45,702 bases of DNA from assembly GCA_031430055.1 (NCBI GenBank), contig JANPAU010000094.1, positions 1-45,702 on the forward strand, written 5' to 3'. A program made the translations under genes and the position numbers. This document shows, one piece after another, positions 2,445-23,757 of the stretch. The notes beneath the pieces were generated by a model that did no database searches, was not told where the DNA came from, and worked only from the letters and a program-made list of their open reading frames with translations. Every line of letters starts with the position of its first letter. Within the stretch, counting starts at the first letter, position 1. Origin of the DNA: Akkermansiaceae bacterium (GTDB taxonomy: Bacteria; Verrucomicrobiota; Verrucomicrobiia; Verrucomicrobiales; Akkermansiaceae).

Positions 2445-3497
2445 ATGCACTCCGCTCTTAATCAACTGATCCGCGACGCGTTTGCCGATGCGGCGACCGA
2501 CGTCTTTTTGATCGAAGACGAACCGCCCCGCATCCGTCGGGAGGGCGAGGTGGTGATCCTTCACCCAGGGTCCATTCCAAGGGGCGCACTCGAAGAGTTT
2601 TGGAAATCCTGCGGCATCGATCCCACATCCACTCTCGAGGTGGACGTCTCCTGGCGCGTCCCCGGCGGCGGTCGCTTGCGGGTGAATCTCTATCACACCC
2701 TCGGCCGCCTCGCCGCCGTCTTGCGGCCGATCCGTAACGACATCCCGCCGCTTGCAGAGCTCGGACTGCCAGGTCCATTGCTAGAATCATGGATGCAGCG
2801 TCGTTACGGCCTCATCCTCATCACCGGTCCCACGGGATCGGGCAAATCCACGACCGTCGCCTCTTGTTTGGACTGGATTAATCAAAATTTATCCCGCCAC
2901 ATCGTCACCCTCGAAGACCCCATCGAGTTCCTCTTCACCAACGAGCGCTCCTTGTTCTCCCAGCGCGAGATTCGACAAGACTCCGCTAACTTTTCCTCAG
3001 GCCTGCGCTCGGCACTCCGCCAGAGTCCAGACGTGCTTTTCCTCGGAGAAATCCGTGACTCGGAGACTGCCATCACCGCCTTGCACGCTGCGGAAACCGG
3101 GCACTTGGTCATTTCCACCCTGCACAGCAGCAGCGTTGTCGATACGCTCGAACGCTTCTCCCATCTGATAGGCACCGAGACCTCCAGTGCGCTCAGCTTG
3201 CTCGCCTCACAGCTTGTCGGCATCCTCTCCCAGCAACTCCTCCCTCGCCTCGGCGGCGGACTCTTCCCTGCGCTCGAATACATGCAAAACGAGGCCGCTA
3301 CCCGCCGCTGGATTCTCGAGAACCGCCTCACCGAGCTCCAAGATCACCTGCTGAAATCCACCGAAGCCTCTAACTGCTCACTTCTCGAATACCTCGTCGC
3401 TTCGGTGAAACAAAACTACCTTGACCCCGACACGGCCCGCGGCGCTTGTGCCCGACCTCAGGATTTTGATCGCGCCATGCGCGGAATCTCTGGATAA
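2445..3497 (+). CDS. PilT/PilU family type IV pilus retraction ATPase
   Basis: Walker A GPTGSGKST, TLEDPIE, LRQSPDVLFLGEIRD, AETGHLVISTLH. Confidence 0.92.
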   Translation: MHSALNQLIRDAFADAATDVFLIEDEPPRIRREGEVVILHPGSIPRGALEEFWKSCGIDPTSTLEVDVSWRVPGGGRLRVNLYHTLGRLAAVLRPIRNDIPPLAELGLPGPLLESWMQRRYGLILITGPTGSGKSTTVASCLDWINQNLSRHIVTLEDPIEFLFTNERSLFSQREIRQDSANFSSGLRSALRQSPDVLFLGEIRDSETAITALHAAETGHLVISTLHSSSVVDTLERFSHLIGTETSSALSLLASQLVGILSQQLLPRLGGGLFPALEYMQNEAATRRWILENRLTELQDHLLKSTEASNCSLLEYLVASVKQNYLDPDTARGACARPQDFDRAMRGISG

Positions 3498-3509
3498 CCC
3501 AATCACGCC

Positions 3510-4598
3510 ATGGCCAGCGATATCACAGAATACCTTCGACACACCGTTGCCCTCGGCGGCTCAGACCTGCATCTCAGCGCTTGGGCTCCGGCTTGCGTCC
3601 GGGTGAACGGCTCCATTGTCCCCATCGATCAAGAGCTTCTCGACCCAGCCACCGTTAGAGACCTGATTCTCGACACACTCAGCGAGTCCCAACGCGCGAC
3701 CCTCGAAGAGGAATTGGAACTCGACTATGCCCTTCAAATCGATGGCATCGGCCGCTTTCGCGGAAATGTCCACATGGCCCGAGGTCACGCGGAGGCGTCA
3801 TTCCGCTTCATCCGGCAGGACATCCCCGAGCTCGAAACACTCGGCCACCACTCCGTCATCCATGAGTTTTGTAATTTGCGCAGCGGTCTCATCCTCGTCA
3901 CCGGCATCACCGGATCCGGGAAATCCACCACACTGGCCTCGATGGTCCGCCGCATCTCGGAGTCTCGTAATGGCGTGATCATCACCCTGGAAGACCCCAT
4001 CGAGTTCATCCATCAACACGCATCCTGTCTCATCAAACAGCGCGAAATTGGCAGCGATACCCGCAGCTTCCCCCGTGCCCTGCGTCAATCACTCCGCCAA
4101 GATCCCGACGTCATCGTCGTCTCAGAACTCCGGGATCTCGACACCATCCGCATCGCTCTAACTGCTGCGGAAACCGGTCACCTGGTGCTTGCCACCCTTC
4201 ACACCCCGGATGCCCCACAGACGATTGACCGGATTGTCGACGTCTTTCCATCCGACCAACAACAACAAGTGATCACCCAGCTTTCCGGCTCGTTAGAAGG
4301 CATCATCTGCCAGCGCCTCATCCCCCGCGCCGATGGCCAAGGCCGGGTGCTCGCCTCGGAAGTGCTCCGTCCTAGCCATGCCATCCGCAACTGCATCCGC
4401 GAGGGCAAGCTCGAACAAATCGTCGGCCTCATGGAAATCGGCCACAAGGAGGGCAACCGCACCATCGACGACAGCATCACCCATCTCTTGAATGCAAACC
4501 TCATCACTCGTGAAGAGGCCATGTTCAACGGTCGTGAGCGCAAAATTTTCGAGGAAAACCCCAAAGAACCTCGCAAGCCCAAATCAATCTGGACCTAA
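3510..4598 (+). CDS. pilT: Type IV pilus retraction ATPase PilT
   Basis: SDLHL, GITGSGKST, LRQDPDVI, AETGHLVLATLHT and AIRNCIRE (AIRNLIRE-like) motif. Confidence 0.9.
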   Translation: MASDITEYLRHTVALGGSDLHLSAWAPACVRVNGSIVPIDQELLDPATVRDLILDTLSESQRATLEEELELDYALQIDGIGRFRGNVHMARGHAEASFRFIRQDIPELETLGHHSVIHEFCNLRSGLILVTGITGSGKSTTLASMVRRISESRNGVIITLEDPIEFIHQHASCLIKQREIGSDTRSFPRALRQSLRQDPDVIVVSELRDLDTIRIALTAAETGHLVLATLHTPDAPQTIDRIVDVFPSDQQQQVITQLSGSLEGIICQRLIPRADGQGRVLASEVLRPSHAIRNCIREGKLEQIVGLMEIGHKEGNRTIDDSITHLLNANLITREEAMFNGRERKIFEENPKEPRKPKSIWT

Positions 4599-5332: not shown

Positions 5333-6106
5333 CTAGCGGGGCCGGCGCAGGGCGAAGCCAAGGCAAGAAAACCCGACCAACAAGCTGCTGGATACTTCGG
5401 GAACGACACTGACTGTCACGTTGGTCGCGTAAGTCGGATACGCTCCACCCACTGGAAGCACCGGTGGTTTCGTTAGATATTCTGCGCCGCCCACCATGAT
5501 GGTATAGGTGCCGGCGGGCAGATTGAAAGAGCCCATAACGTAGCCATCCGCAGTACCATCGCCATTAATTCTGGAGGCGCTTCCATAGTTCGCAGAAGTG
5601 CCATCTGCCATGTTTCCCATATAGGTAAAATCACTCAGGCTGCTGATGGCGGGAGCAACCGCATCGTTGCCAATCCGCCAGTCACCAAGTGCATTGAAGG
5701 TGCCTTGGGCGATGTCCGGCGCACCAAAGAGCCCGGTCAGATAGGCGGTGCTGATCGCACTGCCATCATGATCCAGCGCGTCCGGCGCGAGGTGAGCCAG
5801 GCCGGAGTAGACTGAAAGCGCGGGAAGCAATGGATTTCCGATTCCGGAGGCTTGAGCAGAGAGGGTCACCTGCCCCGCAGTCGCCAGCGTGAAGCGGAAG
5901 GCGCGGTTGCGGTGGCTGTCGCCCAGATCAAAGTCGGTCGAGTAGGCCCAGCCGAAGGTGCTGGAAATATTGCCGGACTTGGTGGACGAGGTGGTTTGAT
6001 TTCCCGGATCGAGCGTGCCGAAATCACGGCCCGTGTAGCTTAAGTGAGCGAAGCCGATTGCCCCGCCGCCGAGTGTGAGAAACGTGATGAGAGTGATCGT
6101 TTTCAT
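5333..6106 (-). CDS. Secreted PEP-CTERM-type surface protein with His motifs
   Basis: Signal peptide; C-terminal VVPEVSSSLLVGFSCLGFALRRPR; His motifs AHLSY, DSHR and AHLAPDALDHD. Confidence 0.85.
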   Translation of the reverse strand: MKTITLITFLTLGGGAIGFAHLSYTGRDFGTLDPGNQTTSSTKSGNISSTFGWAYSTDFDLGDSHRNRAFRFTLATAGQVTLSAQASGIGNPLLPALSVYSGLAHLAPDALDHDGSAISTAYLTGLFGAPDIAQGTFNALGDWRIGNDAVAPAISSLSDFTYMGNMADGTSANYGSASRINGDGTADGYVMGSFNLPAGTYTIMVGGAEYLTKPPVLPVGGAYPTYATNVTVSVVPEVSSSLLVGFSCLGFALRRPR

Positions 6107-6148
6107 GTGGATTGTATTTTCTGATAGTTGGTGTGGAGAGACCTTGGT

Positions 6149-7057
6149 TCAAGGATTCGCCCAATCGAATGCGAGTCGGTAGAACGCCTTGCCCACAGGT
6201 GGAGAGGGGTCGGTGAAATTAAGAGTATCGGCAGTAGTGCCGGTCACGGTTCCGAGGGATTGCCAATCATTCCCGGAAAGGGTGGTGCTGCGCTGGATGG
6301 TGAAAACCACGCCGCTCTGATGATTCTTCCAGATCCCCATCTGACAGGGCCACGTCAGGGTGGGGGAGCCACTGGTGTTTTGCCCGAGAGTGGGCTGGAA
6401 GCTAGGTCCGGCTTGGAATTTGAAAATATAAGTCTGACTGGGCGTGTGCCAGGCACCACTGGGACCAGTAGTACTAAGGTCCACAAAACGAATGCCTACC
6501 AGGTAGTCACCTGGCTTGTCTGCCGTCCAGGCGCGACCATGGATGTGGCCGGACGGATCGTCGTCGATGTTATCATTACCCTCGCTGATGACAAATCGTG
6601 GATTCCCGGTGGGCTGGTTGGTGGCGAGAGAATACCCCACCACCGTGGCACCTTCGTCCCAGTAGCCAAAGTTTGCTCCCGCCGGTCCGGTGACGCTGAC
6701 GATTTCCGCCCAGATCCAGGCGCCGGTGTGGGCGTGGTCTGGGCTGGCGAGGTCATACTGCCCGTCAGACAATGCGGTGATGGAAAACGTGTCCAGCGGG
6801 TAAAGGGTGCGGACAGATTCAGATAGATTGTAGTAACCGCCGCAACGCTGGCCAACCGGACGCGGCAGAAGGTGGAAGGTGCGGTTCGACCAGTTAGTTC
6901 CGGTGAGCTGGAGTTGCTCCCCGGCATTAGCCTCACCGTTGTTGTTGGAGTCGGCAATGCCGACGGCAAAGTGATCGTGAGCCATGGATGGAATGATGGA
7001 AATGCCCAAGGCAAGCGCCACGGATTTTATCGAAAAAAACGGAATGATTGATTTCAC
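6149..7057 (-). CDS. Secreted His-motif protein (choice-of-anchor M-like) with a C-terminal FYR-type domain
   Basis: GTG start, signal peptide ending SMA-HDHF; DHAH; GHIHGRAWTADKPGDY parallels HxHxxWxFxxPGxY; ends FTDPSPPVGKAFYRL. Confidence 0.78.
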   Translation of the reverse strand: MKSIIPFFSIKSVALALGISIIPSMAHDHFAVGIADSNNNGEANAGEQLQLTGTNWSNRTFHLLPRPVGQRCGGYYNLSESVRTLYPLDTFSITALSDGQYDLASPDHAHTGAWIWAEIVSVTGPAGANFGYWDEGATVVGYSLATNQPTGNPRFVISEGNDNIDDDPSGHIHGRAWTADKPGDYLVGIRFVDLSTTGPSGAWHTPSQTYIFKFQAGPSFQPTLGQNTSGSPTLTWPCQMGIWKNHQSGVVFTIQRSTTLSGNDWQSLGTVTGTTADTLNFTDPSPPVGKAFYRLAFDWANP

Positions 7058-7111
7058 GAGAGTTGGAAGTTTGAGATTCAGATGGTCTGCAAATAGATCT
7101 TTTTGAGCGCG

Positions 7112-7780
7112 TCAGTCGGATACCGCCGGATTTGAGGGATCGACGAAGCGGTCATTCCTCGTGGCCAGTCGGGCTTGCACCTGTTGCCACGACAAGGTTT
7201 CCACATGCCCATCAGCGAAGAGATAGTTGGCTGCCACGCCATGATTTTGGACCGCGACATCGTTTTCAAATACCTCAGGCGGAATCGTGCCGCCGTAGTA
7301 GTCGGTAAAATGAAAATGGTTCACGTTCGCGTACGAAGCAGCAGCTTCAGCGAATAAGAATGTCGCCTCGGGCCGTTGGATTTTCGACAGGATCGAGAAG
7401 TCTAATTCCGGCGCGCCGGCCGGCTTCTGAGTTAGAAAATCATTGATCACATAGGTGTAAGCGCGAGACTTGTCGGAATCTTCATGGCACTTGAAGGTGA
7501 TGGTGCCCGAGGCATAGGGTTGTAGCGTTAGAATCCAGGACTTCACACCACGCGAACGTTGGTGCGATGATGCGGGCAGGGTCATGTTGTTGTCTCCCGC
7601 ATACATCATCGTCGCCATGCCGATTTGGCGCAGGTTCTGGCTGCAATTGATGGTACGACTGCGAGTAATCATGCCTTTCCCCACCGGCGCAATGATAGCC
7701 GCCATCACCGCAATGATGCTTACGACGACGAGTAATTCGACTAAGGTGAAGCCTCTGCTGGAAGGATAAGAATTTTTCAA
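7112..7780 (-). CDS. Prepilin-type N-terminal cleavage/methylation protein with H-X9-DG domain
   Basis: RG|FTLVELLVVVSIIAV, CSQNLRQIG, NHGVAANYLFADGHVE. Confidence 0.92.
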   Translation of the reverse strand: MKNSYPSSRGFTLVELLVVVSIIAVMAAIIAPVGKGMITRSRTINCSQNLRQIGMATMMYAGDNNMTLPASSHQRSRGVKSWILTLQPYASGTITFKCHEDSDKSRAYTYVINDFLTQKPAGAPELDFSILSKIQRPEATFLFAEAAASYANVNHFHFTDYYGGTIPPEVFENDVAVQNHGVAANYLFADGHVETLSWQQVQARLATRNDRFVDPSNPAVSD

Positions 7781-8053
7781 AATGTTAATGTATAGATTCG
7801 GTACGGCGACAAAGTCTGCCTAAGGAGGGTGGACATTCCTGTCCGTCTGCCAATGAAGCGCGAAAGCGAATTGCCTAAGGCGCATTCCTTTCTCCTCGCA
7901 CGTTGGCCCACGACAAGAGGGTCGTGATTCTTCAAGCTTCGTCGTGAAAAACGACGCGGCACGCAAACTCAAGGAGAGATGAAACGGCCCTACAAATCCT
8001 CACGGATTCCATCGTCCGATCTCAAATCCCAGCTTTGATCTACGGGAAGACGA

Positions 8054-8482
8054 TTAAACCACTCGCGGCGGCTGCATCGGCACGGCAAGATGGACCTGTG
8101 CATAGGTCCCGAAGTATTCTGTCACACGGAATATTAGTTCCGTGCTGTGCGGGAGTGGAACCATGACTGGAGCAGGCAAGGTGACTTCCCATTTCATCTC
8201 AGCTTTGAGCAAAGGTTTTTTCTCACTCTCGCTCTTCGACTTCTTCACCACTTTGCAGAGGTGGCATGGATGCTCTCCGTCGAAGGTTTTATCGACCGCT
8301 TCTGAGAAAGAATTCGTGCTGGAAAACTCTACCAACATATTCCCCCATGCGACCGTCTGAAGCAGCGCCAAATGCCCGCCCATGGACACGAGAAGTGTCC
8401 CGATCAGGAGATATTGGCTAGCACGTATTACCCACTGCGACATGACGGAAGCCATGGATAGATTGCCGAAGCCTGCGGTCAA
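8054..8482 (-). CDS. Small membrane protein with CxxC (DUF2946-like); start uncertain
   Basis: Hydrophobic N-terminus, GGH, FDGEHPCHLC, Pro-rich C-terminus ending QPPRVV. Confidence 0.7.
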   Translation of the reverse strand: MTAGFGNLSMASVMSQWVIRASQYLLIGTLLVSMGGHLALLQTVAWGNMLVEFSSTNSFSEAVDKTFDGEHPCHLCKVVKKSKSESEKKPLLKAEMKWEVTLPAPVMVPLPHSTELIFRVTEYFGTYAQVHLAVPMQPPRVV

Positions 8483-8539
8483 GCAGTTTTAAGAGTTTAT
8501 ATACGCTCTATTTCCGCTGATGCGATGGTGATATCGCGA

Positions 8540-9715
8540 TTACTCGGGAGTCGAAACAAGCATCACTCTTGCAAACCCGCGAGATGGTCTTGCCTGACCG
8601 GTCGGGCGCTTGCAGGTAACTTTCTCCCACACTGGGTTGAGCGAGTTCTGCGCCGCAGGGAAGTTTGTGACTTCAGTAACTATTCCGGAATCCTTCCAAT
8701 CTTCTACTGCCAAACTATTGGCGAACTGTGGGTTGTAGCTGATTGGTGCGATCTGCTCGGCTGCACGCCGCTGCGGATACTTTAGGACTTCATAAAACGT
8801 GCCGCCATCCTCAATGAGTGATATTTCCGGCAAACCCAGACCGGCAGCTACCGCTTCAGCGTTCCCATTTCGTGGATTGTATCCGAAGGCGAACTCGACG
8901 AGGTTTTTCATCCCGTCTTGGTCGGGATCTGCGTCCGGTCCGCAGATGGCCGGTTGATCGAGTTCACTGGCGGAAAAATGGGTGGTCTGCCACTGCGCGA
9001 AGGGGCCGATGGCGAATGTGACGGTAAACGGAGGACCCGATCCGGTGGGATTGCTCTGGCCAGGACCTAGGAACGCGGACGCGGCAAGCCTAATCCGATA
9101 GATTCCCGGAGATCCGAATCCCCAATTGAGATGGACGTGACCTCCGGCTACGAACAGGAAGGTGTCCGGATGGGATTGATCCGCCGTGGAGAACCAGACC
9201 GTCGGTGTTCCGAAACCGTCAGTCTGCCACATGGAAAATGCTCCCGCGTCACTTCCCGGACGAGTGACACTCAGCAAGGTGAGCTTCAACCAGGGAAGGG
9301 CGAGAGCACGGTCCTCCGCTGGCAGCCGGAGATCTGTTTCCTGGTAGGCGCCGAAGGTTCCCGTGGCCTGATTGTTGTTGAATCCCGGCCAGCACTGGTC
9401 CGGTGTCTGGATTTGTGGCGCAACCCAGAGCGGACTGCCGGGTGCCACGCCGGTGAATGCGAATTCTGGCGCTTCCGGCTGCTCTAACCGCTGCCCGCCG
9501 GTGGCTGATGGCTCGTCGTCAAGAGGAAGGCTGACCGCGTCGAACTCTTGAAAAAAGTCGCTGCCCTCCGCCACGGTTTTCGCTTCGGAGGTCCAGCCGT
9601 CTTCCGGAGTGTAGGTGAGGTGGACGTCCACGTGTTCGCGCAGAGAAACCAGCCCGGCCGGGCTTGGCAGCACGGACCCGAGCACGGTCGAGGTAAGTAT
9701 CAGTATGTATTTCAT
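8540..9715 (-). CDS. Secreted choice-of-anchor M (TIGR03769-like) domain protein with a C-terminal DPDxDG...RxFxR domain
   Basis: Signal peptide; EHVDVH, WVAPQ, WPGF, GHVHLNWGFGSPGIY; DADPDQDGMKNLVEFAFGYNP; start overlaps the upstream stop by 4 nt. Confidence 0.85.
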   Translation of the reverse strand: MKYILILTSTVLGSVLPSPAGLVSLREHVDVHLTYTPEDGWTSEAKTVAEGSDFFQEFDAVSLPLDDEPSATGGQRLEQPEAPEFAFTGVAPGSPLWVAPQIQTPDQCWPGFNNNQATGTFGAYQETDLRLPAEDRALALPWLKLTLLSVTRPGSDAGAFSMWQTDGFGTPTVWFSTADQSHPDTFLFVAGGHVHLNWGFGSPGIYRIRLAASAFLGPGQSNPTGSGPPFTVTFAIGPFAQWQTTHFSASELDQPAICGPDADPDQDGMKNLVEFAFGYNPRNGNAEAVAAGLGLPEISLIEDGGTFYEVLKYPQRRAAEQIAPISYNPQFANSLAVEDWKDSGIVTEVTNFPAAQNSLNPVWEKVTCKRPTGQARPSRGFARVMLVSTPE

Positions 9716-10434
9716 GGTAATCCTTCCACTCCCGGCGGCTTCGCGATGTTGATGCCGCTCTGGATCTTCCGCCGCACCTCGCTGGCATTCATCGCCTCGA
9801 CCCGGCCATCTACAAACAGATAGATTGATCGCCCCTTCGTTCTGGCGGTCGATCCTCCACCAAAGCGGTCGGGGGAAATGTCATTGCAGACGGAGGACCA
9901 CGAGGTCCATAGATTGGAATGGGTATGGTCGTTTCCCGGCCCGACTCCGGTGCGGTCGGAGCAGATGAAGCAGAGGATCGTGCGTGAAGGCTCGGGAATC
10001 GCGGTCAGGCGGTTCAACTGCGGACCGACCGGATTCCCAAACGGTCCCAGCTGCGGGACAAACAGATAGCTGTTGAGAATGTAGCTGCTGCCCTTCGCCT
10101 CACGCCGGGCGACCGCTTTCGGATCGGCAGGGCAAATGCGGGCTTCGTCGAAATTTCCCATGTAGCCCTGCAACGCATAAATCCACGCTCTGCCGAGACT
10201 GGCGGTGTGAGTCGTCTCGGGAAATTTGCCGCCGTTGTCGTCGGCATACATCCGGATCGCGACGCCGATGTTCCGCAGGTTCGAGCTGCTTGCTGCCTGC
10301 TTTGCGGAGGCAATCGCAGTCTTGCCGCCGATCGCGGCCAAGGTGCCGAGAGCACCCACGATCGCGATGACCACCAGCAGCTCGAGCAAAGTGAACCCTT
10401 GACGACGGTTCGTGACGGAAGATTCAAACGGCAT
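9712..10434 (-). CDS. Prepilin-type N-terminal cleavage/methylation protein (H-X9-DG-related)
   Basis: QG|FTLLELLVVIAIVG, SSNLRNIG, YLFVDGRVE; His motifs PETTH and NDHTH. Confidence 0.92.
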   Translation of the reverse strand: MPFESSVTNRRQGFTLLELLVVIAIVGALGTLAAIGGKTAIASAKQAASSSNLRNIGVAIRMYADDNGGKFPETTHTASLGRAWIYALQGYMGNFDEARICPADPKAVARREAKGSSYILNSYLFVPQLGPFGNPVGPQLNRLTAIPEPSRTILCFICSDRTGVGPGNDHTHSNLWTSWSSVCNDISPDRFGGGSTARTKGRSIYLFVDGRVEAMNASEVRRKIQSGINIAKPPGVEGLP

Positions 10435-10463
10435 GGCTTGGAAATAAGACAGTAATAATGCTC

Positions 10464-10480
10464 ATGCAAACAAAATGCAT
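10464..10480. promoter_or_regulatory. Putative Zur/Fur-family operator box 1
   Basis: ATGCA-AACAAAA-TGCAT inverted repeat in the AT-rich divergent promoter region. Confidence 0.65.
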
Positions 10481-10497
10481 CAATTGTGATTATTTAA

Positions 10498-10514
10498 TTG
10501 CAGTTTAAATGCGT
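10498..10514. promoter_or_regulatory. Putative Zur/Fur-family operator box 2
   Basis: TTGCAGTTTAAATGCGT; 15/17 identical to the reverse complement of the box at 16798-16814. Confidence 0.7.
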
Positions 10515-10549
10515 TATTGTCTTTTTGTCGCGTCATCAACCATCACTTC

Positions 10550-11257
10550 ATGAAACTAAACACATCATTCCTCCTCGTTGGATTTGCTCTAACCGCCTCC
10601 GCCTCCGCCTCCGCAGCCACACTCACTAAGGGCCATGTCGATTTCATCGGCATCGCCTATGACGGCACGAACTTTGAACCTCACAGCCATGTCGAAAGTG
10701 GCGTGGTCGATGGCGTGCCAATCGTCGATGTCGAGTTTGGTGCAGGCGACTTGATCATTCAAATTTCAGCCACCACCACCCGCGATGCCGGATCGGCTTT
10801 CGTACCGATCGGTGTCGGCGCTGGCGAAAGCTACTGGACCGCAACGGAAAGCGCGGACGAGAACATCTTGCCCTTGGTGGGATTCGGCCTTGAGGAACTC
10901 GATCCCCTCGACTGGAGTTCGAACATCACCGTCACGCTGACCGGAGCCTCAATTCCAATGGATGCGGTGTTTTCAACTTGGAAGGGCGAAGTGACACCCG
11001 TTTTCTCCTTCAGCACCTTGGACGGCCTCACTGCCGCCGATTCCGTCTCCTTGGTGCCCGGCGCACACATCGACTACAACTGGGGATTCACCAAAGTGGG
11101 AAATTACGAACTCACCTTCCTGATCGAAGGCACCCATGCGGTCGATGGTTTTAAATCCACCACTGCATCTTACGCCTTCGCGGTGATTCCTGAGCCGTCT
11201 GCCGCCTTGCTCGGTGCGTTTGGCGCACTTGGGTTGCTGCGCCGCCGTAGGAACTGA
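10550..11257 (+). CDS. PEP-CTERM protein with a choice-of-anchor M (TIGR03769-like) domain
   Basis: ATG at 10550 gives signal peptide MKLNTSFLLVGFALTASASASA; GHVD, HSH, AHIDYNWGFTKVGNY; canonical IPEPSAALLGAFGALGLLRRRRN. Confidence 0.9.
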   Translation: MKLNTSFLLVGFALTASASASAATLTKGHVDFIGIAYDGTNFEPHSHVESGVVDGVPIVDVEFGAGDLIIQISATTTRDAGSAFVPIGVGAGESYWTATESADENILPLVGFGLEELDPLDWSSNITVTLTGASIPMDAVFSTWKGEVTPVFSFSTLDGLTAADSVSLVPGAHIDYNWGFTKVGNYELTFLIEGTHAVDGFKSTTASYAFAVIPEPSAALLGAFGALGLLRRRRN

Positions 11258-11273
11258 CTGATAGAGGGAAAGG

Positions 11274-11397
11274 GTTGACTACGGATTACACGGATGAACG
11301 GACTTTAGTGAAGTGATGAAAACCGAGAAACCCACCTTCGAAGCGAGCTGGCTGTCAGTGAGAATTCTAGATTTCATCTCCGTAAATCCGTAGTTAG
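11274..11397. repeat. Intergenic inverted repeat (ACTACGGAT...ATCCGTAGT type)
   Basis: GACTACGGATTACACGGATGAA ... TTCATCTCCGTAAATCCGTAGTT; architecture similar to the repeat at 22962-23058. Confidence 0.6.
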
Positions 11398-11426
11398 ATC
11401 ATCTAAAAAGTCGCTCAACGCCAACC

Positions 11427-11458
11427 AAGCCTCGGCGGAACCCGTCGAGGCTTTTTTT
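11427..11458 (+). terminator. Rho-independent terminator
   Basis: AAGCCTCGGCGG-AAC-CCGTCGAGGCTT followed by a T run. Confidence 0.8.
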
Positions 11459-11481
11459 CACTGAAATTTCCACCAATTCCC

Positions 11482-13950
11482 ATGATTCTGAGAACCATGA
11501 AATCCTGCCTATTCGCGTTCTGGGCAGTCTTTCCCACACTCGCCGCCGCCCAGACTGCGCCGACGATTTCCAACGTGACCAATAAAACCACGCTGGAAAC
11601 CACAACCTCGGCAGCCATCGCCTTCACCATTGGCGATGCGGAAACTCTAGCTGCCGATCTCGTTGTCACGGCCACCTCCTCCGATCTCACCTTGATTCCT
11701 GCGGCGGGAATCTTGCTCAGTGGCAGTGAGTCAAGCCGCACCGTGACGCTGACACCCGCCAGCGGTCTATCAGGCAGTGCGACGATCACGCTCACCGTGA
11801 CCGATGCAGATTTGCAAACTATCACCGACTCTTTCGTGCTGACCGTGCATCCCGTTTACAGCATCCCCGGCGAGACGATTCCAGATCTCGTCATGGACGC
11901 AGACGCATCCGTCACCGTGAACTATCAGATCCCGGACGCCACATGGGTTTCCTCCGCCAGCCGCACGAATATCACGCTGCTCAAGTCCGTCGGCACATCT
12001 TCTAGCAGCGCGATTCGCCTCCAGCCGACATCCGGTGGCACCGCGCGCACGCTCCGCATCAAGCCCGACGACCGCAGCACCTCGGTCGGGTTTTACGGGA
12101 TTTCTAACGTCACTTTGGCACTCGCAGGCAGTGGCGCACCGACCCTGCCCACGTTCCTTGTCAGGGTGAATCCCCGCGCCGTGGCGGACAATAATCTCCT
12201 CGGCATCCCCGGCACCACCAGCACCTTCGACGTATTGGCAAATGACGTAATCCCGCTGCCCGGCCACGCGTTTGCCATCACCGCCGTCACCACACCTGCT
12301 CATGGGACGGTGGAAATTTCCGCCAGCGGCTCGCTCGTCCGCTACACGCCAACCGCAGGCTATCTCGGCCCGGACGCATTCGAATACACCGTTACTATCA
12401 GCTCGGCAGACGAATTCAATGGCTTCACCTTCACCGGCATCGGCTACGTCACGGTGGGAAATTACATCGTCGTCGATTCACCGACCGCCGCGCAACACAC
12501 CGACATTGGCCTGAATTACACCAACGGCGTCTGGACCCAAAACATCGAGTCAGATGCCGCTGTCTCAGGTTCGGTGGAGAGCGGAACTTTTTCCCCGACG
12601 ATTTTGGACTCGGACGAAGGTGTCCTTTTCCTTGACCCATCCACCAAGGAATCCCGGCCTGCGGACAGCATTTACGACTTCATCGGCATCCCCGCCGGGG
12701 CCCACATGTGGCGTGGCCCCAGCTCGCCCGTGGGCGACAAAATCTATCTCGGAATCGCCAGTGAGGAAACCTCGCCATCCACGCTCATCGCCTACGAGAC
12801 GGCCGATCCCCGAGCCGTCGGAACCACCCACTGGGTCGAGACCCGGCTGGTCAATTTCACCGGACCCGGCCATTTCGCCGCCTTCGATTTTACCAGTCCC
12901 CTCCGCGTCCATTTCGACACCGCGGACGGCGTGAACAGCCCCACGGATGCCGCAGTCGGAGTAAATCCCACGGATACTTTTTTCGGTTTTGCAGGCTCCC
13001 ACGCGCACATCAACTGGGTTTTCACCCAACCCGGTCGCTACGCCCTCACCTTCCGCTCGCGGGTCAATACGGCCGCTGGCTTCATCACCAGCCCGGACGT
13101 CACCTACTATTTCAACGTGGACACCATCACCAACAGTGCCCGCCTCGGGGAAAATCCACCGCTCGTCTTGGCCGATGCAGCCGCCGTGCTAGAAGACAGC
13201 GGCCCGTTCGCTATCGACGTGCTGACCAACGATTCCTCCTCACCCGATCCGCTGGAACTGCTCACCATCACCGGGAAAACCGATGGCACCCACGGCACCG
13301 TCGCCCACTCTGCTAGCGGTCTGACCTACACACCTGCGGTAAATTTCGCGGGCAGCGACAGCTTTACCTACACCGTCGCCGACGAGCACGGCGGCACCGC
13401 CACTGCCAGCGTGGCCGTCACCGTCACCGCCGTGAACGACGCGCCCATTTTCGCTGGTTACTCCATCGAGACTCCGCGCAACCAAGCCGTCACCCTTGCC
13501 ATCGCCACTCTACTCGCAGCCACCAGCGACCCAGAAAACGACACGGTCACCCTCACCGCCTTCGCGCCCGTTAGCACCGCGAGCGGCACGGTCACCTCGG
13601 ATGCAAGCAGCCTCTTCTATCAGCCACCCACCGACTTCACGGGAGCAGACACGTTCACCGTCACCTTCAGCGATTCCCAAGGTGCTCAAACCGTCGCAAG
13701 CATCCAGATCGGGGTCATCGCACCTTCGCCGCCCTCCTTCACTGGCCTTGAAATTCTGCCCAACGCCGCCGCCCGGATTTCCTACACCGGCGTGCCCGGC
13801 AGAAGTTATCGTATCGAGCGCTCACTAACTCTTGCCGATGATTGGACGCCCGTCGGTGCCACCCTCGCAGACGAGTCAGGAAACCTCATTTTCCTCGATC
13901 CCGAAGCCCCAGCGGACCGCGCATTTTATCGCTGCATCGCGCTTCCGTGA
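11482..13950 (+). CDS. Large secreted protein: cadherin/Big_9-like repeats, choice-of-anchor M domain and C-terminal FYR-type domain
   Basis: Signal peptide; DVLAND...YTP...GxDxFxY repeats, VNDAP; QHTDIG and GSHAHINWVFTQPGRY; ends YRIERS...W...FLDP...RAFYR. Confidence 0.88.
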   Translation: MILRTMKSCLFAFWAVFPTLAAAQTAPTISNVTNKTTLETTTSAAIAFTIGDAETLAADLVVTATSSDLTLIPAAGILLSGSESSRTVTLTPASGLSGSATITLTVTDADLQTITDSFVLTVHPVYSIPGETIPDLVMDADASVTVNYQIPDATWVSSASRTNITLLKSVGTSSSSAIRLQPTSGGTARTLRIKPDDRSTSVGFYGISNVTLALAGSGAPTLPTFLVRVNPRAVADNNLLGIPGTTSTFDVLANDVIPLPGHAFAITAVTTPAHGTVEISASGSLVRYTPTAGYLGPDAFEYTVTISSADEFNGFTFTGIGYVTVGNYIVVDSPTAAQHTDIGLNYTNGVWTQNIESDAAVSGSVESGTFSPTILDSDEGVLFLDPSTKESRPADSIYDFIGIPAGAHMWRGPSSPVGDKIYLGIASEETSPSTLIAYETADPRAVGTTHWVETRLVNFTGPGHFAAFDFTSPLRVHFDTADGVNSPTDAAVGVNPTDTFFGFAGSHAHINWVFTQPGRYALTFRSRVNTAAGFITSPDVTYYFNVDTITNSARLGENPPLVLADAAAVLEDSGPFAIDVLTNDSSSPDPLELLTITGKTDGTHGTVAHSASGLTYTPAVNFAGSDSFTYTVADEHGGTATASVAVTVTAVNDAPIFAGYSIETPRNQAVTLAIATLLAATSDPENDTVTLTAFAPVSTASGTVTSDASSLFYQPPTDFTGADTFTVTFSDSQGAQTVASIQIGVIAPSPPSFTGLEILPNAAARISYTGVPGRSYRIERSLTLADDWTPVGATLADESGNLIFLDPEAPADRAFYRCIALP

Positions 13951-14000
13951 GTTCCAGCCAAACATCCGCGCATCATCTTTTTGTAGTGCGGTACGATCAA

Positions 14001-14315
14001 TCACCTCATCACCTTCAGATTCGCAGGCCACGGATCGGGGAAAATACCGCCTTGCTGCCAGTGTTCGATTTCCTCCTCAGTGCAAAAGCAGTCCAGTAGC
14101 TCCCTACCGAAAATTTCCAAATCGCGGGCGTGGCCGATGAGAGTTAGCTCGCAGGAACGGTCGCCAAAGACCGGATGCAGGCTCGGAAGGATGAGAAGCA
14201 GCAACGGGGTGACCGCGCAGTGGATGGCACAGAGAACGGAGGCGAGCACGCCGATGCGATCCGCGTCTAGCGGACTGGCGACGGCGGTTTCAGGAAAAGT
14301 GGTGGCGGGCATCAT
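14001..14315 (-). pseudogene. Chimeric remnant: MerC-family N-terminus fused to a COG0523 (CobW_C) C-terminus
   Basis: DRIGVLASVLCAIHCAVTPLL (MerC) followed by FGDRSCELTLIG...LLDCFCTEEE...DPWP, which aligns by eye with the tail of the neighbouring GTPase. Confidence 0.72.
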
Positions 14316-14537
14316 TCAAGGAGTGCGGTGGATGGCTTCTTCCTCGGCCCGGCGGAACCATGCGATGACTTGAGTGAGGTATTCTTCGCCGTAAGTTTCG
14401 CGGAAACTCCGGGTCGAGGGGATGGAGGAATCTGCCAGCGCCAACAACCGCTCGCGGCAATAGGCGGCGGTGAGTTCGAGACCACAGCGGACGGTGATGG
14501 TGTATCGCCATTCGGTAAAATCGCTAAAGGTGTGCAT
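14316..14537 (-). CDS. Small hypothetical protein (about 73 aa)
   Basis: ATG at 14537, 4 nt after the upstream stop; MHTFSDFTEWRYTITVRCGLELT...YGEEYLTQVIAWF; stop abuts the next start. Confidence 0.75.
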   Translation of the reverse strand: MHTFSDFTEWRYTITVRCGLELTAAYCRERLLALADSSIPSTRSFRETYGEEYLTQVIAWFRRAEEEAIHRTP

Positions 14538-14541
14538 GGGA

Positions 14542-15042
14542 TCAGGGGATGAGAGATTTCCGCAAGGCGGCCACGCATTCCTGCCAGAAGGCGGCTTCCA
14601 TCGCCTCGTAGCGGACGACATCTGCGGCGATGTGAGTGGTGTGGAGGATGTTGCTTGGTTCGGCTAACAAGTCTTCATATAGCGAGCTGAGGACGTAGTG
14701 ACGGACCTCATCTGCGTCGGCGAGGATGGCGCTGGGATCTTCGCGTCGCAGTTCCGTTTCGAGGGCGCATACCACTCGCTCCAGCGCGGCAGCATCCAGC
14801 GTGAAGCCCATTCTCAGTGCGGAAACCCGGTGTTCTTCGATGATGGCCAGCAAGCGTTTCACGATCCGGCGGGTCTCACCCTTGCGGTCTTCGATTTCCT
14901 GCGGCGGCTTGACTGGCTCCAGTTCCGGCAGTGGAGAAATGCCGCCCGGCGAGATTGGCGAATGGCTGCCGATTTCGGAAATGAGCACGCGCCGCTTCGG
15001 CAGGGCTGGGATGTTAGGTTCGTCCATCGGGTTCACGACCAT
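14542..15042 (-). CDS. Hypothetical protein
   Basis: 166-aa helical-looking ORF overlapping the GTPase stop and in operon geometry. Confidence 0.7.
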   Translation of the reverse strand: MVVNPMDEPNIPALPKRRVLISEIGSHSPISPGGISPLPELEPVKPPQEIEDRKGETRRIVKRLLAIIEEHRVSALRMGFTLDAAALERVVCALETELRREDPSAILADADEVRHYVLSSLYEDLLAEPSNILHTTHIAADVVRYEAMEAAFWQECVAALRKSLIP

Positions 15043-16211
15043 TTCTGAAAGGGATCGGTCATCTGCGCCCAGCCGGAAGGCCCACGCCGGTATTCGTCAT
15101 CGGTGAGCAGTGCATCATCCAGCAGACCTTCCAAGATTTCCCGGTCCAAGCCCTGCCCGATGAGCACGATTTCCTGACGACGGTCGCCCCATGGCTCTTC
15201 CCAAGATTTTTTTAACGCTGCGAGGGAATCTTCATCGGCGGGTCGGCGATCTTCGGGGATGGCCGCCCAGAAATGTCCCGCACAACTGTTCCGGGCAATG
15301 ACTCCAGCCTGCGACCAGAACCCAGCATGGTCCGGGCGCGAGGCGAGCCAGAACACGCCCTTGGAGCGGATGACACCCGGCCATTCGCAGGAAATCAACT
15401 CGTGAAAACGAGCCGGGTGAAACGGTCGTCGTCGCTGATAGATAAAGTTAGAAATTCCATACTCTTCCGTCTCAGGTGTGTGGTGGACGAGCGAATCGAG
15501 CCAACCGGGGGATTTTTCCGCCTCCGCTTGAGAGTAGAGACCGGTGTTCAGAATCATCGCAGGAGCGACTTCGCCATGGGTAGTCTCGATGACGCGAGCC
15601 TTGGGATTGAGGGAACGGACCATGCCCGTCACTGTCGCGAGGTCGGTTGCACTCACGCAGTCCGCCTTGTTGACGATGATGATATTGGCGAACTCGATTT
15701 GATCGGTGAGCAGATCCACCAAGGTGCGCTCGTCCCCCTCCCCCACCGCTTGTTTGCGGTCTTGCAGTCGTTCAGGGCTGGCGTAGTCGCGCAAAAAATT
15801 TGGCGCATCTACCACTGTGACCATGCAGTCGATCTGGGCGAGGCTGGAGAGAGAGAAACCATTTTCATCCTCGAAGGTGAAGGTTTCCGCGACGGGCATC
15901 GGCTCGGAAACGCCGGTGGACTCGATGAGCAACGCATCGAAACGGCCCTCCTTCGCGAGGCGTGTCACCTCTAACATGAGATCCTCACGCAGCGTGCAGC
16001 AAATGCAGCCATTGGACATTTCCACCATTTTTTCCTCAGTGTGGGAAAGCGCGGCATCGCCCCGGCGGAGCGTCTCGGCATCGACGTTGACCTCGCTCAT
16101 GTCGTTGACGATCACGGCGACTTTGAGGCCCGCGCGATTGCGAAGGATATGGTTGAGGAGAGTGGTTTTCCCGGCTCCAAGGAAGCCGGAAAGGACGGTG
16201 ACAGGTAGCAT
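15033..16211 (-). CDS. COG0523/CobW-family zinc metallochaperone GTPase (ZigA/YciC-like)
   Basis: LPVTVLSGFLGAGKTT, IVNDMSE, NGCICCTLREDL, IESTG, NKAD, RSKG, WGDRRQEIVLIG; start assigned at ATG 16211. Confidence 0.95.
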   Translation of the reverse strand: MLPVTVLSGFLGAGKTTLLNHILRNRAGLKVAVIVNDMSEVNVDAETLRRGDAALSHTEEKMVEMSNGCICCTLREDLMLEVTRLAKEGRFDALLIESTGVSEPMPVAETFTFEDENGFSLSSLAQIDCMVTVVDAPNFLRDYASPERLQDRKQAVGEGDERTLVDLLTDQIEFANIIIVNKADCVSATDLATVTGMVRSLNPKARVIETTHGEVAPAMILNTGLYSQAEAEKSPGWLDSLVHHTPETEEYGISNFIYQRRRPFHPARFHELISCEWPGVIRSKGVFWLASRPDHAGFWSQAGVIARNSCAGHFWAAIPEDRRPADEDSLAALKKSWEEPWGDRRQEIVLIGQGLDREILEGLLDDALLTDDEYRRGPSGWAQMTDPFQKWS

Positions 16212-16216
16212 GATTG

Positions 16217-16780
16217 TTAGGATTTGAGTAAATCTTTCGGGCGCGGTGGGTCTCCAGCGGCAGCGAGTTCCCACCATTTCAGGGCCAACTCGGGTGGCAA
16301 CCAGGGTTTGCCCTTGGGCAGTTTTTTGAGAGTGCGCCAGCAGTCCGTCCGCCACGCCGCGCCGAGTTCGCAGACGATCCATTTTTCATAAACGACGAGC
16401 CACTCGATCAACGGGTGCGCCGCCTGCCAACGCTCGACAGCAGCACCTGGCACACCTGATTCTCGGCCCGGAATCGGGGCGCGATTTGCGTGCCATAGGT
16501 CGATGCGCCCGGTCGCCCGCGAGAAAGTGCAGCCCGGCATTTCGTCAGCGGTCACATAGGTGACCACCGCTCCGTGGAGCTCGATCAGCCCGTTTCTCCA
16601 AGCCATCGAGTAGCAGCTCGTGCCCGTAAGACCGGATGAGGGCGCACGCTCCAAGCCGAAGTGCACCAAGGCATTTCCGTCGAAATGCCGCACATCCCGG
16701 CCCCAAAAAACCATTTGCTGCGCGAGACCCCGGGCGGCGTCATTCAGAATTACTGGAATCGCAGCGCAGAGAGTTAACAT
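16217..16780 (-). CDS. Hypothetical Trp-rich protein, first gene of the COG0523 operon
   Basis: 187-aa ORF ending 5 nt before the GTPase start and directly downstream of an operator box; QQMVFWGRDV...GxSCY...IELHG. Confidence 0.75.
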   Translation of the reverse strand: MLTLCAAIPVILNDAARGLAQQMVFWGRDVRHFDGNALVHFGLERAPSSGLTGTSCYSMAWRNGLIELHGAVVTYVTADEMPGCTFSRATGRIDLWHANRAPIPGRESGVPGAAVERWQAAHPLIEWLVVYEKWIVCELGAAWRTDCWRTLKKLPKGKPWLPPELALKWWELAAAGDPPRPKDLLKS

Positions 16781-16797
16781 CCTTTAAATGTCAATTA

Positions 16798-16814
16798 ACG
16801 CATTTTAATTGCAA
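16798..16814. promoter_or_regulatory. Putative Zur/Fur-family operator box 3
   Basis: ACGCATTTTAATTGCAA (reverse complement TTGCAATTAAAATGCGT), 17 nt upstream of the operon start codon. Confidence 0.7.
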
Positions 16815-17015: not shown

Positions 17016-18485
17016 ATGTCTTCAATTTTCCATGGTCACTCGGTAAATTCTGGTTGGCGCTGGGATCACTCTTATGCCCGGTTACCGGAAATTTTTTTCA
17101 AGCGAACTCATCCAGGGCCGGTCAGTTCGCCGCGCCTAGTTGTTTTCAATCGTCCTCTGGCAGTTGCCTTGGGACTGGACCTTGCCCTGCTGGAAAAATC
17201 CGGCATTTTCGCGGGCAACGAAATCCCAGAAGGTGCAGACCCCATTGCCCAAGCATACGCCGGACATCAATTCGGAAACTTTACGAGCCTAGGAGATGGT
17301 CGGGCAATTCTGCTAGGCGAGCAGATCACGCCTGACGGCAGCCGCTTCGACATTCAATTGAAAGGCTCCGGTCGAACTCCCTACTCGCGGGGTGGTGATG
17401 GTCGCGCGGCCCTTGGCCCGATGCTGCGCGAATACATCATCAGCGAAGCGATGCACGCGCTCGGCATCCCGACTACCCGTAGCCTCGCGGTAACCACGAC
17501 GGGTGACGAAGTGATCCGCAATGAAACTCTAGCAGGTGCCGTCTTGACAAGGGTCGCCGCCAGCCACATCCGCGTGGGAACCTTCCAGCACGCCGCAGCG
17601 CATGAAGATCTAGCAGCGTTACGCACATTGGCCGATCACACCCGGAAACGCCATTTCCCGGAAATCACCGATGGCGAATCGAGCGACTTTGAATTCTTCC
17701 AAAGTGTGATGGATCGCCAGGCTGAATTGATCGCGAAATGGATGCACGTCGGCTTCATCCACGGCGTGATGAATACCGACAACATGGCGCTTTCCGGCGA
17801 GACCATCGACTACGGCCCTTGTGCCTTCATGGATAATTATGATCCAGACACCGTATTCAGTTCGATTGATCGCCAGGGGCGTTATGCGTATGGCAACCAA
17901 GCCGCAATTGCTCGCTGGAATCTTGCCCGTCTTGCAGAAGCGATGTTGCCATTGCTTTCTAAGGACCGAGGGAAAGCTGTCGATCTCGCCAATGAAGCCC
18001 TTGGAAGTTTTGAAGGGAAATTTCAACATGCCTGGCTCATGGGCATGAGGGCGAAACTGGGGCTTTATACGATTGAATCCGAGGATGGCGGGCTGGTTCA
18101 AAGTCTCTTAAATTGGATGCATCAAAACCACTTGGATTTTACTAACACATTCCGTGCCTTGAGTAATGAAAGCGCGATCGCTGAACCAAGCATTATCGAT
18201 CCTGACTTCCTTGGATGGCATGAGCAGTGGAACTCCCGCCTAAGCCGCCAGCCTCAGTCATCCACGGAAGCCGTGGTTCAGATGCGGGCAAATAATCCCG
18301 CGGTGATTCCCCGCAACCACAAGGTGGAGGAGGCACTCACCGCCGCCACGCAGCATGGGGATTTCACGGTGATGGAGCGCTTGCTCGTCGCGCTGGCGAA
18401 TCCCTACGGGAATGAAGTCTCTCAGGAATACACTGCGCCACCTGCTGCTGGCTCACCCATCTATCAGACATTCTGTGGCACTTGA
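17016..18485 (+). CDS. selO: Protein adenylyltransferase SelO / YdiU
   Basis: YAGHQFG, LGDGRA, QLKGSGRTPYSR, GFIHGVMNTDNM, IDYGP; C-terminal TFCGT. Confidence 0.96.
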   Translation: MSSIFHGHSVNSGWRWDHSYARLPEIFFKRTHPGPVSSPRLVVFNRPLAVALGLDLALLEKSGIFAGNEIPEGADPIAQAYAGHQFGNFTSLGDGRAILLGEQITPDGSRFDIQLKGSGRTPYSRGGDGRAALGPMLREYIISEAMHALGIPTTRSLAVTTTGDEVIRNETLAGAVLTRVAASHIRVGTFQHAAAHEDLAALRTLADHTRKRHFPEITDGESSDFEFFQSVMDRQAELIAKWMHVGFIHGVMNTDNMALSGETIDYGPCAFMDNYDPDTVFSSIDRQGRYAYGNQAAIARWNLARLAEAMLPLLSKDRGKAVDLANEALGSFEGKFQHAWLMGMRAKLGLYTIESEDGGLVQSLLNWMHQNHLDFTNTFRALSNESAIAEPSIIDPDFLGWHEQWNSRLSRQPQSSTEAVVQMRANNPAVIPRNHKVEEALTAATQHGDFTVMERLLVALANPYGNEVSQEYTAPPAAGSPIYQTFCGT

Positions 18486-22413: not shown

Positions 22414-22749
22414 ATGAACACCCGCCGTAATTTCCTGAGTAAACTCGCCGTCTCCGCTGCCATGCCTGTCATCCTGTGTGGCCACGCTTTCGGTCAAGCA
22501 CCGCCACCGGTAAAACTTGAAGAGAGCGATCCAGTAGCTACCGCCCTCGGCTACAAAGAAGACACCACCAAGGTGGATGCCGCCAAGTATCCTCTCCACA
22601 AGGCGGAGCAACGGTGTGACAACTGCGCACTCTATCAAGGAAAGCCCGGCGAAGCCAGCGGCCCTTGCACTGCTTTTGGAGGTAAGCTGGTCACCGCCGC
22701 CGGTTGGTGCTCGGTCTGGGTGAAAAAGCCTGAGCCAGTGAAACCGTAA
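22414..22749 (+). CDS. High-potential iron-sulfur protein (HiPIP), Tat-exported
   Basis: TRRNFL Tat motif; DPVATALGY, CDNCALY, C..F.GKLV...GWCSVW with four Cys ligands. Confidence 0.93.
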   Translation: MNTRRNFLSKLAVSAAMPVILCGHAFGQAPPPVKLEESDPVATALGYKEDTTKVDAAKYPLHKAEQRCDNCALYQGKPGEASGPCTAFGGKLVTAAGWCSVWVKKPEPVKP

Positions 22750-23649: not shown

Positions 23650-23757
23650 GCGTGACGCATCAGCCACGTTTCCACAAATCATGACGCGCGGTAGTATCGA
23701 ATCTCTTCTACGGAGTTTCCCGTCGCATTTTTTGCGATTTCCCTTAGTCTCCCTTAT

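Follow-up and report, generated by a model that had tools for sequence, protein, structure and literature searches.

To our knowledge, scarce metals cross the outer membrane by two kinds of route, TonB receptors and porins. Here we describe a gene island in a stretch of 45,702 nucleotides of DNA from an Akkermansiaceae bacterium (NCBI GenBank assembly GCA_031430055.1, contig JANPAU010000094.1; "the window"). In this island a type IV prepilin-like gene, pil1, stands with genes for exported proteins that carry a choice-of-anchor M domain (M1, PEP-M and BigM, here called M proteins). We propose that pil1 serves as an outer-membrane route for zinc uptake and replaces a ZnuD-like TonB receptor, a proposal that leans on the mutual exclusion of the two and on a modelled complex, and to which we give an even chance.

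The M proteins have described counterparts in Corynebacterium diphtheriae, where ZnuE, ZnuF and ZnuG are repressed by Zur, carry the HxD...HxH motif and all bind zinc (PMC12445094). His residues of ZnuE are required for growth in low zinc; the His-to-Ala mutants still bound, which leaves the site unproven (PMC12445094). Like the proteins of our island, ZnuE/F/G and CmrA/CmrA2 of the same species are exported, have varied anchors and possess a domain in which HxD and HxH lie about 150 amino acids (aa) apart; unlike here, the host of ZnuE/F/G is monoderm, the genes stand with znuABC, and there is no pilin (PMC12445094). Another relevant system is ZepA (All3515) of Anabaena PCC 7120, a Zur-repressed PEP-CTERM exoprotein for zinc uptake. 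The neighbours of zepA are COG0523, TonB receptor and Fur genes, ZepA was proposed to pass zinc to the TonB receptor, and pilins go unmentioned in the accessible part of that paper (PMC10957091). True ZepA genes stand in 6 loci related to ours; the two that were tested score 231 and 200 bits on NF040463. Of 17 window proteins none matched NF040463 (cut-off 75) at E 0.01, the PEP-CTERM protein at 5333 being outside this family, and a ZepA query found no match in the present genome.

A pilin cassette in place of a ZnuD-like receptor

We searched 201 genomes of the family with NF038134. The model matched 51 of them, and about 10 kb per side was taken for 58 M-domain loci from 50 relatives, many of which end at contig ends. 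Two layouts emerged. Twenty loci have a TonB receptor gene that points away from those of a 550-aa M protein and PEP-M. The pilin layout, found in 25 loci, has pil1 mostly divergent from PEP-M, and M1 is present in 24 of them. The best NCBIfam match of the receptor is ZnuD (NF038289), at 244 bits far below the cut-off of 950. These sister loci carry the same operator and M-domain neighbours. All 26 pilin genomes lack the ZnuD-like receptor and have the pilin cassette instead.

The two cassettes were never found in the same genome. When whole genomes of the 201 were searched, pil1 occurred in 26 and the receptor orthologue (at least 546 bits; next match 422) in 23, with zero overlap. Genomes with M domains divide into 25 with pilin, 23 with receptor, none with both and 3 with neither, namely G022, which has the second module described below, and G091 and G116, with short contigs. 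The 150 M-negative genomes contain no receptor orthologue and one pil1, at a contig end. The ZnuD-like receptor orthologue is absent from the present assembly (3.36 Mb, 81% complete; the window is its contig C94). Both types occur within two genera, in one of which (g7) they stand 5 vs 6 (p 0.002). On an RpoB tree (FastTree, 50 rows, 44 labelled; G000, G088, G097, G089 and G180 gave no rpoB match and are left out) the state changes 6 times, and 4 of these changes are forced by well-supported branches.

Similar arrangements extend beyond the family. In a phylum sample, the M gene is adjacent to pil1 at 10 of 11 pil1-type loci, and 7 of the loci have the operator box. Outside the family, an M gene likewise stands next to the receptor in the 3 closest receptor loci. 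A Chthoniobacterales contig bears both modules of the island in different order; planctomycete contigs bear related pilin and PEP-CTERM pairs.

pil1 and its predicted complex with M1

The pilin-like proteins of the island match TIGR02532 at 29-29.7 bits, over the cut-off of 16.3, and also match PF07963; a basic leader and a hydrophobic helix are present. Among the 120 best homologues of pil1, His76, Asp169, His170 and His172 are present in all, Phe132 and Gly133 in 118, the G/F cleavage site in 111 and Glu+5 in 119. The same His triad is found in 1 of 42 other prepilins with the DG motif, a control set collected by contig scan with generic pilin patterns (1/64 parts; 50 scored, 8 family members excluded). 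The PF07596 score of pil1, 18.9, is below cut-off, and R-X-DG replaces H-X9-DG (R190 in 119/120). The island encodes a paralogue, pil2 (HHalign 100%, 29% identity), which passes PF07596 (26.6 vs 23.3), reaches TIGR04294 exactly at the cut-off of 19 bits and has the same His triad as pil1, kept in 119-120 of 120 pil2 homologues. The family is large: searches yielded 1243 clusters with pil1 (E 1e-40) and 537 with pil2 (E 1e-10). Named homologues belong to Luteolibacter, Haloferula and Akkermansiaceae, and one of pil1 is from Haloferula chungangensis. An apparent pil1-M1 fusion in G187 was rejected, its long open reading frame (ORF) being an out-of-frame shadow.

The AlphaFold model of pil1 (predicted local distance difference test, pLDDT, 91) has a helix at 16-66. 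Its structural neighbours in the top rows are pilins, at weak scores (Z 5.7 with root-mean-square deviation, rmsd, 5.0 over 148 aligned residues; Z 5.6 with rmsd 3.8). Foldseek found no match under E 0.001 for the pil1 model, and the match of the pilin to PDB sequences covers the N-terminal helix only.

On the side of the presumed partner, NF038134 (cut-off 55) is matched by M1 at 79, PEP-M at 64.6 and BigM at 72 bits. HxD and HxH lie about 150 residues apart in M1 and BigM, while PEP-M has HxD at both ends. H28, H193 and H195 of M1 recur in 25, 26 and 26 of 26 M1 proteins, and across the four groups of M proteins compared the HxD...HxH motif hardly varies. Matches to TIGR03773/TIGR03769 hint that proteins of ZnuE/F/G type belong with NF038134. 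By this analogy, the His site of the M-domain proteins, of ZnuE/F/G type, is likely where zinc is captured, and the surface His proteins, cast as metal capturers by a first-pass annotation of this DNA, do possess such sites. No solved structure matched the M1 family in a PDB sequence search, and a Foldseek search with the M1 model returned nothing but light chains of antibodies (TM 0.14-0.15).

We modelled residues 38-240 of pil1 together with residues 22-391 of M1 and two zinc ions. The pair scored 0.76 and the best control 0.00; 116 of 157 solved complexes attain the mark for this score, as do 2 of 215 mismatched pairs, and the mark is roughly applicable here (custom alignments, ligand). Runs share at least 89% of contacts, and partner pLDDT is at least 88. 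In the model, the interface comprises 107-116 contacts with a hydrophobic core, every one of them on the M domain. The PFG loop of the pilin (Pro131-Phe132-Gly133) would pack on M1 residues 77, 80, 85, 98, 163-165 and 197, and the predicted interface takes in pilin His76 and His172 along with M1 His28, His193 and His195. The pocket positions G74, P80 and aromatic 85 are conserved in 26, 24 and 26 of 26 pilin-type M1 proteins and vary in receptor-type M proteins, an observation drawn from the same sequence data and hence not fully independent. The prediction thus supports docking of pil1 on the His site of M1. Together with receptor exclusion, the predicted complex speaks for the earlier suggestion that pilins take part in metal uptake.

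Operator and zinc regulon

The first-pass annotation placed the same TGCA-N7-TGCR box before three transcription units. As a bare pattern, this box is not above chance (4 matches in the window vs 3.97 expected; 191 genome-wide) and lends no support. The support comes from a matrix and from tests across genomes. A 23-bp matrix (consensus CTATTGCAATTAAATTGCAATAG; the box itself is about TGCAA-N5-TTGCA) was trained solely on 51 sites from the loci of relatives. It ranks the three window sites first to third in 3.36 Mb (27.2, 22.8 and 22.8), where maxima in 5 shuffled genomes are 16.8-21.6. In an independent test, a box lies at most 300 bp upstream of the orthologue of the His-loop znuA in 29 of 30 relatives, at similar distance; among the controls, it is absent from all 30 downstream windows and all 212 rpoB windows. 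The zinc-starvation context proposed before is thereby strengthened. At M loci of relatives, the score is at least 16 in 20/20 receptor loci and 24/26 pilin loci, which are not independent because they overlap the training set. In the present genome, the His-loop znuA has a site of 16.7 and a gene of a His-rich ABC ATPase has one nearby of 17.4, both within shuffle range; the second PF01297 gene is without box (3.6), and no site above 4.3 was found within 2.5 kb upstream of 4 tested TonB receptor genes of the 5 in the genome.

Three related loci contain a gene of the Fur family that has a box to itself. Its closest copy here, on contig C440 (40% identical), is the best repressor candidate; we presume Zur to be the repressor and zinc the metal. 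Zur models score no better than Fur/PerR models on the locus-linked protein. A conserved palindrome before znuA and COG0523, a trait of Zur regulons, is present. We therefore regard the island as very probably a zinc-starvation unit, and the box as a candidate verrucomicrobial Zur box, defined here computationally. None appeared among the terms searched in the accessible part of PMC6103462. A palindrome was reported 5´ of zepA in Luteolibacter yonseiensis (PMC10957091) and may be the same as the present box.

Downstream of the third site lies an operon of zigA, encoding a COG0523 GTPase (NF038288, 601.5 bits vs cut-off 600). Here another part of the early proposal, a recurring cluster of pilin, M and COG0523 genes, holds for the first two: the pairing of pilin with M is conserved, while ZigA occurs within about 10 kb of only 1-2 of 25 pilin loci. 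The first gene of the operon, u187, recurs in 16 of 58 M loci of relatives, often with its own box, 5´ of zigA or of a MerC-like gene, and is a candidate new member of the Zur regulon. MerC-like proteins of full length (219-263 aa) follow u187 in 5 related loci and are possible inner-membrane metal carriers. For u187 and the PEP-CTERM protein, atlas searches returned leads below 0.9 only.

Proposed mechanism and alternatives

We suggest the following course of events. Low zinc would release operators A-C and znuA from a Fur/Zur-type repressor. PEP-M, BigM and M1 would then be exported and, if they resemble ZnuE/F/G in this respect, bind zinc. pil1 would be cut by prepilin peptidase and presumably join a type IV filament as a minor subunit, assembled by the general machinery of the cell. 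The PFG loop would enter the M domain, bringing pilin His76/His172 near M1 His28/His193/His195 as predicted. Finally, zinc or zinc-loaded M1 might be pulled in on retraction and handed to ZnuABC and ZigA. The four distal leftward genes would form a second module of like design. A CruR-like stalling leader would gate it, and its metal is probably copper. A broader claim follows, which we hold at slightly below even chance: Verrucomicrobia import trace metals via type IV filaments, where a metal-specific minor pilin docks on its cognate surface protein, retracts, and replaces TonB receptors. Two parallel versions in one island, zinc under Zur and copper under a leader, would suggest that the pilins of DUF1559/H-X9-DG type in the Planctomycetes-Verrucomicrobia-Chlamydiae (PVC) group are, in general, substrate-specific import adaptors.

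Several observations weigh against the proposed route. Firstly, they concern the exclusion itself. The gene tree of PEP-M parts pilin and receptor loci by one change (support 58), from which we conclude that whole cassettes were swapped and that there were 4-6 independent events rather than 48; Fisher's p of 1.5e-11 overstates the exclusion for this reason. In the phylum sample of 401 genomes (13 with the pilin family, 39 with ZnuD-like receptors), zero overlap is close to the 1.3 expected by chance. Secondly, there are the other receptors and a possible porin. Pilin genomes are generally poorer in TonB receptors, with a median of 4 (and at least 3 in each) vs 7; of the 26 pilin genomes, 3 have a ZnuD-like paralogue (380-422 bits); another TonB receptor stands beside the PEP-M gene in G193; and a His-rich, boxed beta-barrel-like gene on contig C271 (site score 15.3, in the range of the shuffles) might encode a porin as another way in. 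Thirdly, the filament motor is not linked: pilT/U genes adjoin none of the 58 family loci and, among 11 phylum loci, a single one (L295, pilT within 3 kb), and PilT is present in all 47 genomes of both types, so the machinery does not travel with the cassette. Absence of motor and assembly genes from the cassette fits a minor pilin on a general machine and lends retraction nothing. Lastly, His170 lies outside the confident contacts, the model output is without zinc positions, and some pil1 copies (L034, L255) follow MbnH-like genes with no strong box, so the metal is not necessarily zinc each time.

Some of these observations would suit a pil1 that acts as display or export adaptor, bringing M1 to the outside along a type IV filament or via a type II secretion channel; zinc would then enter by porins, and retraction would draw nothing in. 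The large predicted interface with its hydrophobic core, the unlinked motor genes and the boxed His-rich beta-barrel-like genes (C271; cluster 14 in 5 loci; L091) agree with such a role. Receptor-type loci, however, use the same C-terminal domain and PEP-CTERM anchors without pilin, which means that export does not need it, and both the invariant His triad and the exclusion with an importer would be left unexplained. We consider this reading unlikely. Alongside it we note exported His-rich beta-barrel-like proteins without family, some of them boxed (contig C271 of G000, 14190-15062; L032, 5180-6529; L091, 7039-7938), which are possible metal porins.

Rather less probable, in our opinion, is a periplasmic relay, in which pil1 is held in the inner membrane by its N-terminal helix, never enters a filament and passes zinc from periplasmic M1 to ZnuABC. 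ZnuE of Corynebacterium, a membrane-anchored M-type protein required for uptake, gives it some precedent (PMC12445094). The structural match of pil1 to solved pilins is weak, too, and polymerization of this pilin class is a presumption. Nevertheless, pil1 retains the G/F site and Glu+5, which are marks of type IV pilin processing and assembly, and a relay in the inner membrane would not stand in for an outer-membrane receptor.

It is improbable that the two cassettes are not equivalent at all, i.e. that both are old units under zinc control which exclude each other through history and genome economy, with the pilin used for adhesion or for metal buffering at the surface. The single change on the PEP-M tree and the lower number of TonB receptors in pilin genomes agree with this, as does the finding that ZnuF and ZnuG dampen uptake rather than promote it (PMC12445094); yet 0 of 48 genomes hold both cassettes despite mixing in two genera, and the exchange recurs behind an unrelated leader. 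Finally, operator and first module could serve manganese, cobalt or nickel, given that the box presumably resembles the alphaproteobacterial Mur/Fur site TGCA-N7-TGCA, that PF01297 covers Mn/Fe binders and that the locus-linked Fur protein scores no better with Zur than with Fur/PerR models, but this is highly improbable, since it is the znuA with the His-rich loop that is boxed and the second PF01297 gene that is not, and the ZigA, ZepA and ZnuD-like neighbours point to zinc.

A probable second module with a CruR-like leader

The idea that the whole island forms one system under one operator is not supported: the four distal leftward genes (CxxC leader, pil2, M-like and PEP-CTERM protein) probably are a separate, unboxed module. 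This unit stands alone in G165, G029 and G022 with no site above 14. Its lone occurrence and its leader make a second, differently regulated module likely.

CruR (Bp2923, DUF2946/PF11162) of Bordetella pertussis is a copper-responsive stalling leader (PMC9426467). Our leader resembles it as a small ORF with export signal, CxxC, a C-terminal proline motif, a long gap behind it and an association with TonB receptor and MbnH-like genes; it differs in spacing (59 vs 45 in CruR) and tail (QPPR vs RAPP) and in heading a pilin (PMC9426467). With E values as high as 1 allowed, PF11162 itself matched none of 7 leaders. The leader family is present in 116 of 201 genomes and pil2 in 5. In the 30 best leader loci, HPCxxC and the C-terminal PP motif are 59-68 residues apart, a spacing fixed within subclades, and a gap of 106-552 bp (274 bp here) follows in the 29 loci with a downstream ORF. 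The next genes encode 9 TonB receptors, 6 MbnH-like proteins, 4 pilins, 4 PEP-CTERM proteins and 3 porin-like proteins (classified by N-terminal sequence and by Pfam matches of representatives). The gap between leader and pil2 folds only slightly better than shuffles (z -1.7) and contains no clear C-rich Rho site. At 7800-7830 it holds a GGAGGGTGGACATTCCTGTCC-like palindrome, which we take to resemble a verrucomicrobial repeat element.

The window leader groups (support 99) with the leaders of G179 and G158, to which it is 71-74% identical and behind which a TonB receptor gene follows; that receptor has no match in the present genome. One leader clade comprises 7 loci with pil2 and 4 with a TonB receptor; of 8 leader loci from metagenomes, 3 have pil2, 2 have the same receptor and 3 were uninformative. 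As far as gene content tells, the exchange of pilin for receptor is thus a twofold event, behind unrelated regulators. The M-like protein at 6149 has no family match, and HHalign relates it to the M1 family (92.7%). In it and in the PEP-CTERM protein alike, an invariant His marks the predicted mature N-terminus or stands right beside it (cleavage sites by eye), and His in this position is typical of copper sites. By analogy, we find it rather more likely than not that the second module serves copper. In this genome, read-through from the zinc promoter may also transcribe it.

In L034, L043 and L255, pil1 and/or M1 come after genes of beta-propeller/di-haem peroxidase (MbnH-like) and PEP-CTERM proteins, and in L043 a CxxC leader heads the run.

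Organization of the island

Features of the island are listed in Table 1. Every gene of the first-pass annotation was recovered at its position. It had also remarked on HxH/HxD motifs in most exported products and on the lack of a TonB receptor or ZnuABC gene, and both remarks are correct: of the 7 exported proteins other than the leader, 6 contain such motifs, the exception being the PEP-CTERM protein at 5333 with its conserved His immediately after the signal peptide, and the rest of the genome has 5 TonB receptors and 2 ZnuA-family genes. No ZIP transporter was matched in this 81%-complete genome. Machinery matches in the genome comprise 4 secretins, 9 T2SSE-family proteins, 1 prepilin peptidase and 1 exosortase. 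The start of M1 overlaps the stop of pil1. The hairpin before BigM may reduce its expression. A scan for sigma-70 promoters gave 7 matches vs 5.2 expected, i.e. chance level.

Table 1. Genes and sites of the island, with window positions
Feature	Position	Strand	Remarks
pil1, type IV prepilin-like (DUF1559/H-X9-DG-like)	9712..10434	-	G13/F14 cleavage site, E+5; His76, D169-H170-T-H172-S; P131-F132-G133 loop
M1, signal peptide, choice-of-anchor M domain, verrucomicrobial C-terminal domain	8540..9715	-	H28-x-D30 ... H193-x-H195
CruR-like leader ORF (CxxC protein)	8054..8482	-	hydrophobic N-terminus, HPCHLC, C-terminal QPPR; likely ATG 8455
pil2, prepilin-like paralogue of pil1	7112..7780	-	H73, H155-F-H157, H180 (H-X9-DG) invariant; without PFG loop
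M-like secreted protein	6149..7057	-	H27-x-H29 directly after signal peptide; H171-x-H173
PEP-CTERM-type protein	5333..6106	-	invariant A20-H21 at predicted mature N-terminus; D63-x-H65
Operator A, putative Fur/Zur-type, between divergent units	10465..10479		TGCAAACAAAATGCA
Operator B, putative Fur/Zur-type	10499..10513		TGCAGTTTAAATGCG
PEP-M, M domain and PEP-CTERM	10517..11257	+	H40-x-D42 ... H184-x-D186; likely ATG 10550
Intrinsic-terminator-like hairpin	11427..11453	+	just 5´ of BigM
BigM, 822 aa, Big_9/cadherin-like repeats, M domain, C-terminal domain	11482..13950	+	H339-x-D ... H507-x-H; extended surface protein
MerC-like remnant	14001..14315	-	about 35 residues match 224-aa MerC-like proteins of related loci
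Two small ORFs without family, zigA operon	14316..15042	-	14542-15042 and 14316-14621
ZigA-type COG0523 zinc metallochaperone GTPase	15033..16211	-	likely ATG 16211; ORF list start 16382
u187, 187-aa cytoplasmic protein	16217..16780	-	no family name
Operator C, putative Fur/Zur-type, 5´ of u187-zigA operon	16799..16813		top site of genome

A pair of pilU/pilT-family genes (2445-4598, +) directly adjoins the island. On the other side, selO (17016-18485, +) is divergent from operator C at about 200 bp and is also present in pilin loci L044 and L082. Further along the window, we noted by eye a Tat-signal protein like a high-potential iron-sulfur protein (22414-22749, +) and short ORFs like a broken IS4-type transposase (23224-23826).

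Comparison with known pilins

Pilins with binding functions have been described in several contexts. In the bindosome of Sulfolobus, pilin-type processing presents a binding module, for sugars and with dedicated Bas genes (PMC3047682). The Synechocystis major pilin PilA1 acts in iron acquisition, by reduction and electron transfer (PMC4144903). PVC pili known from MUL2 pili of Akkermansiaceae (PMC13174399) and dextran-binding fibres of Planctomycetes (PMC5394234) work in glycan attachment. Among the structural matches of pil1 is ComP (PDB 5hz7).

We take ComP to be a DNA-receptor minor pilin with dedicated Com assembly genes. Unlike our system, the bindosome and ComP involve no metal, no separate partner protein and no exchange with TonB receptors, and neither PilA1 nor MUL2 nor the dextran fibres combine the role of a metal-regulated minor pilin with a His site of their own and a cognate metal-binding partner. 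In the open-access literature we found no description of pilin-based metal import or of such pilins with M domains. Taken together, the regulon and the zinc-binding domain are of known kinds, and the pilin route alone would be new, if confirmed. DUF1559/H-X9-DG pilins are a large family of Verrucomicrobia and Planctomycetes with function unassigned; if our assumptions are true, one branch would receive its first concrete, testable job, together with partner and interface, and targets for mutation are defined to the residue (His76/170/172 and Phe132 of the pilin, Phe85 of M1). A pilin replacing a ZnuD-like receptor would then represent a third route for metals across the outer membrane.

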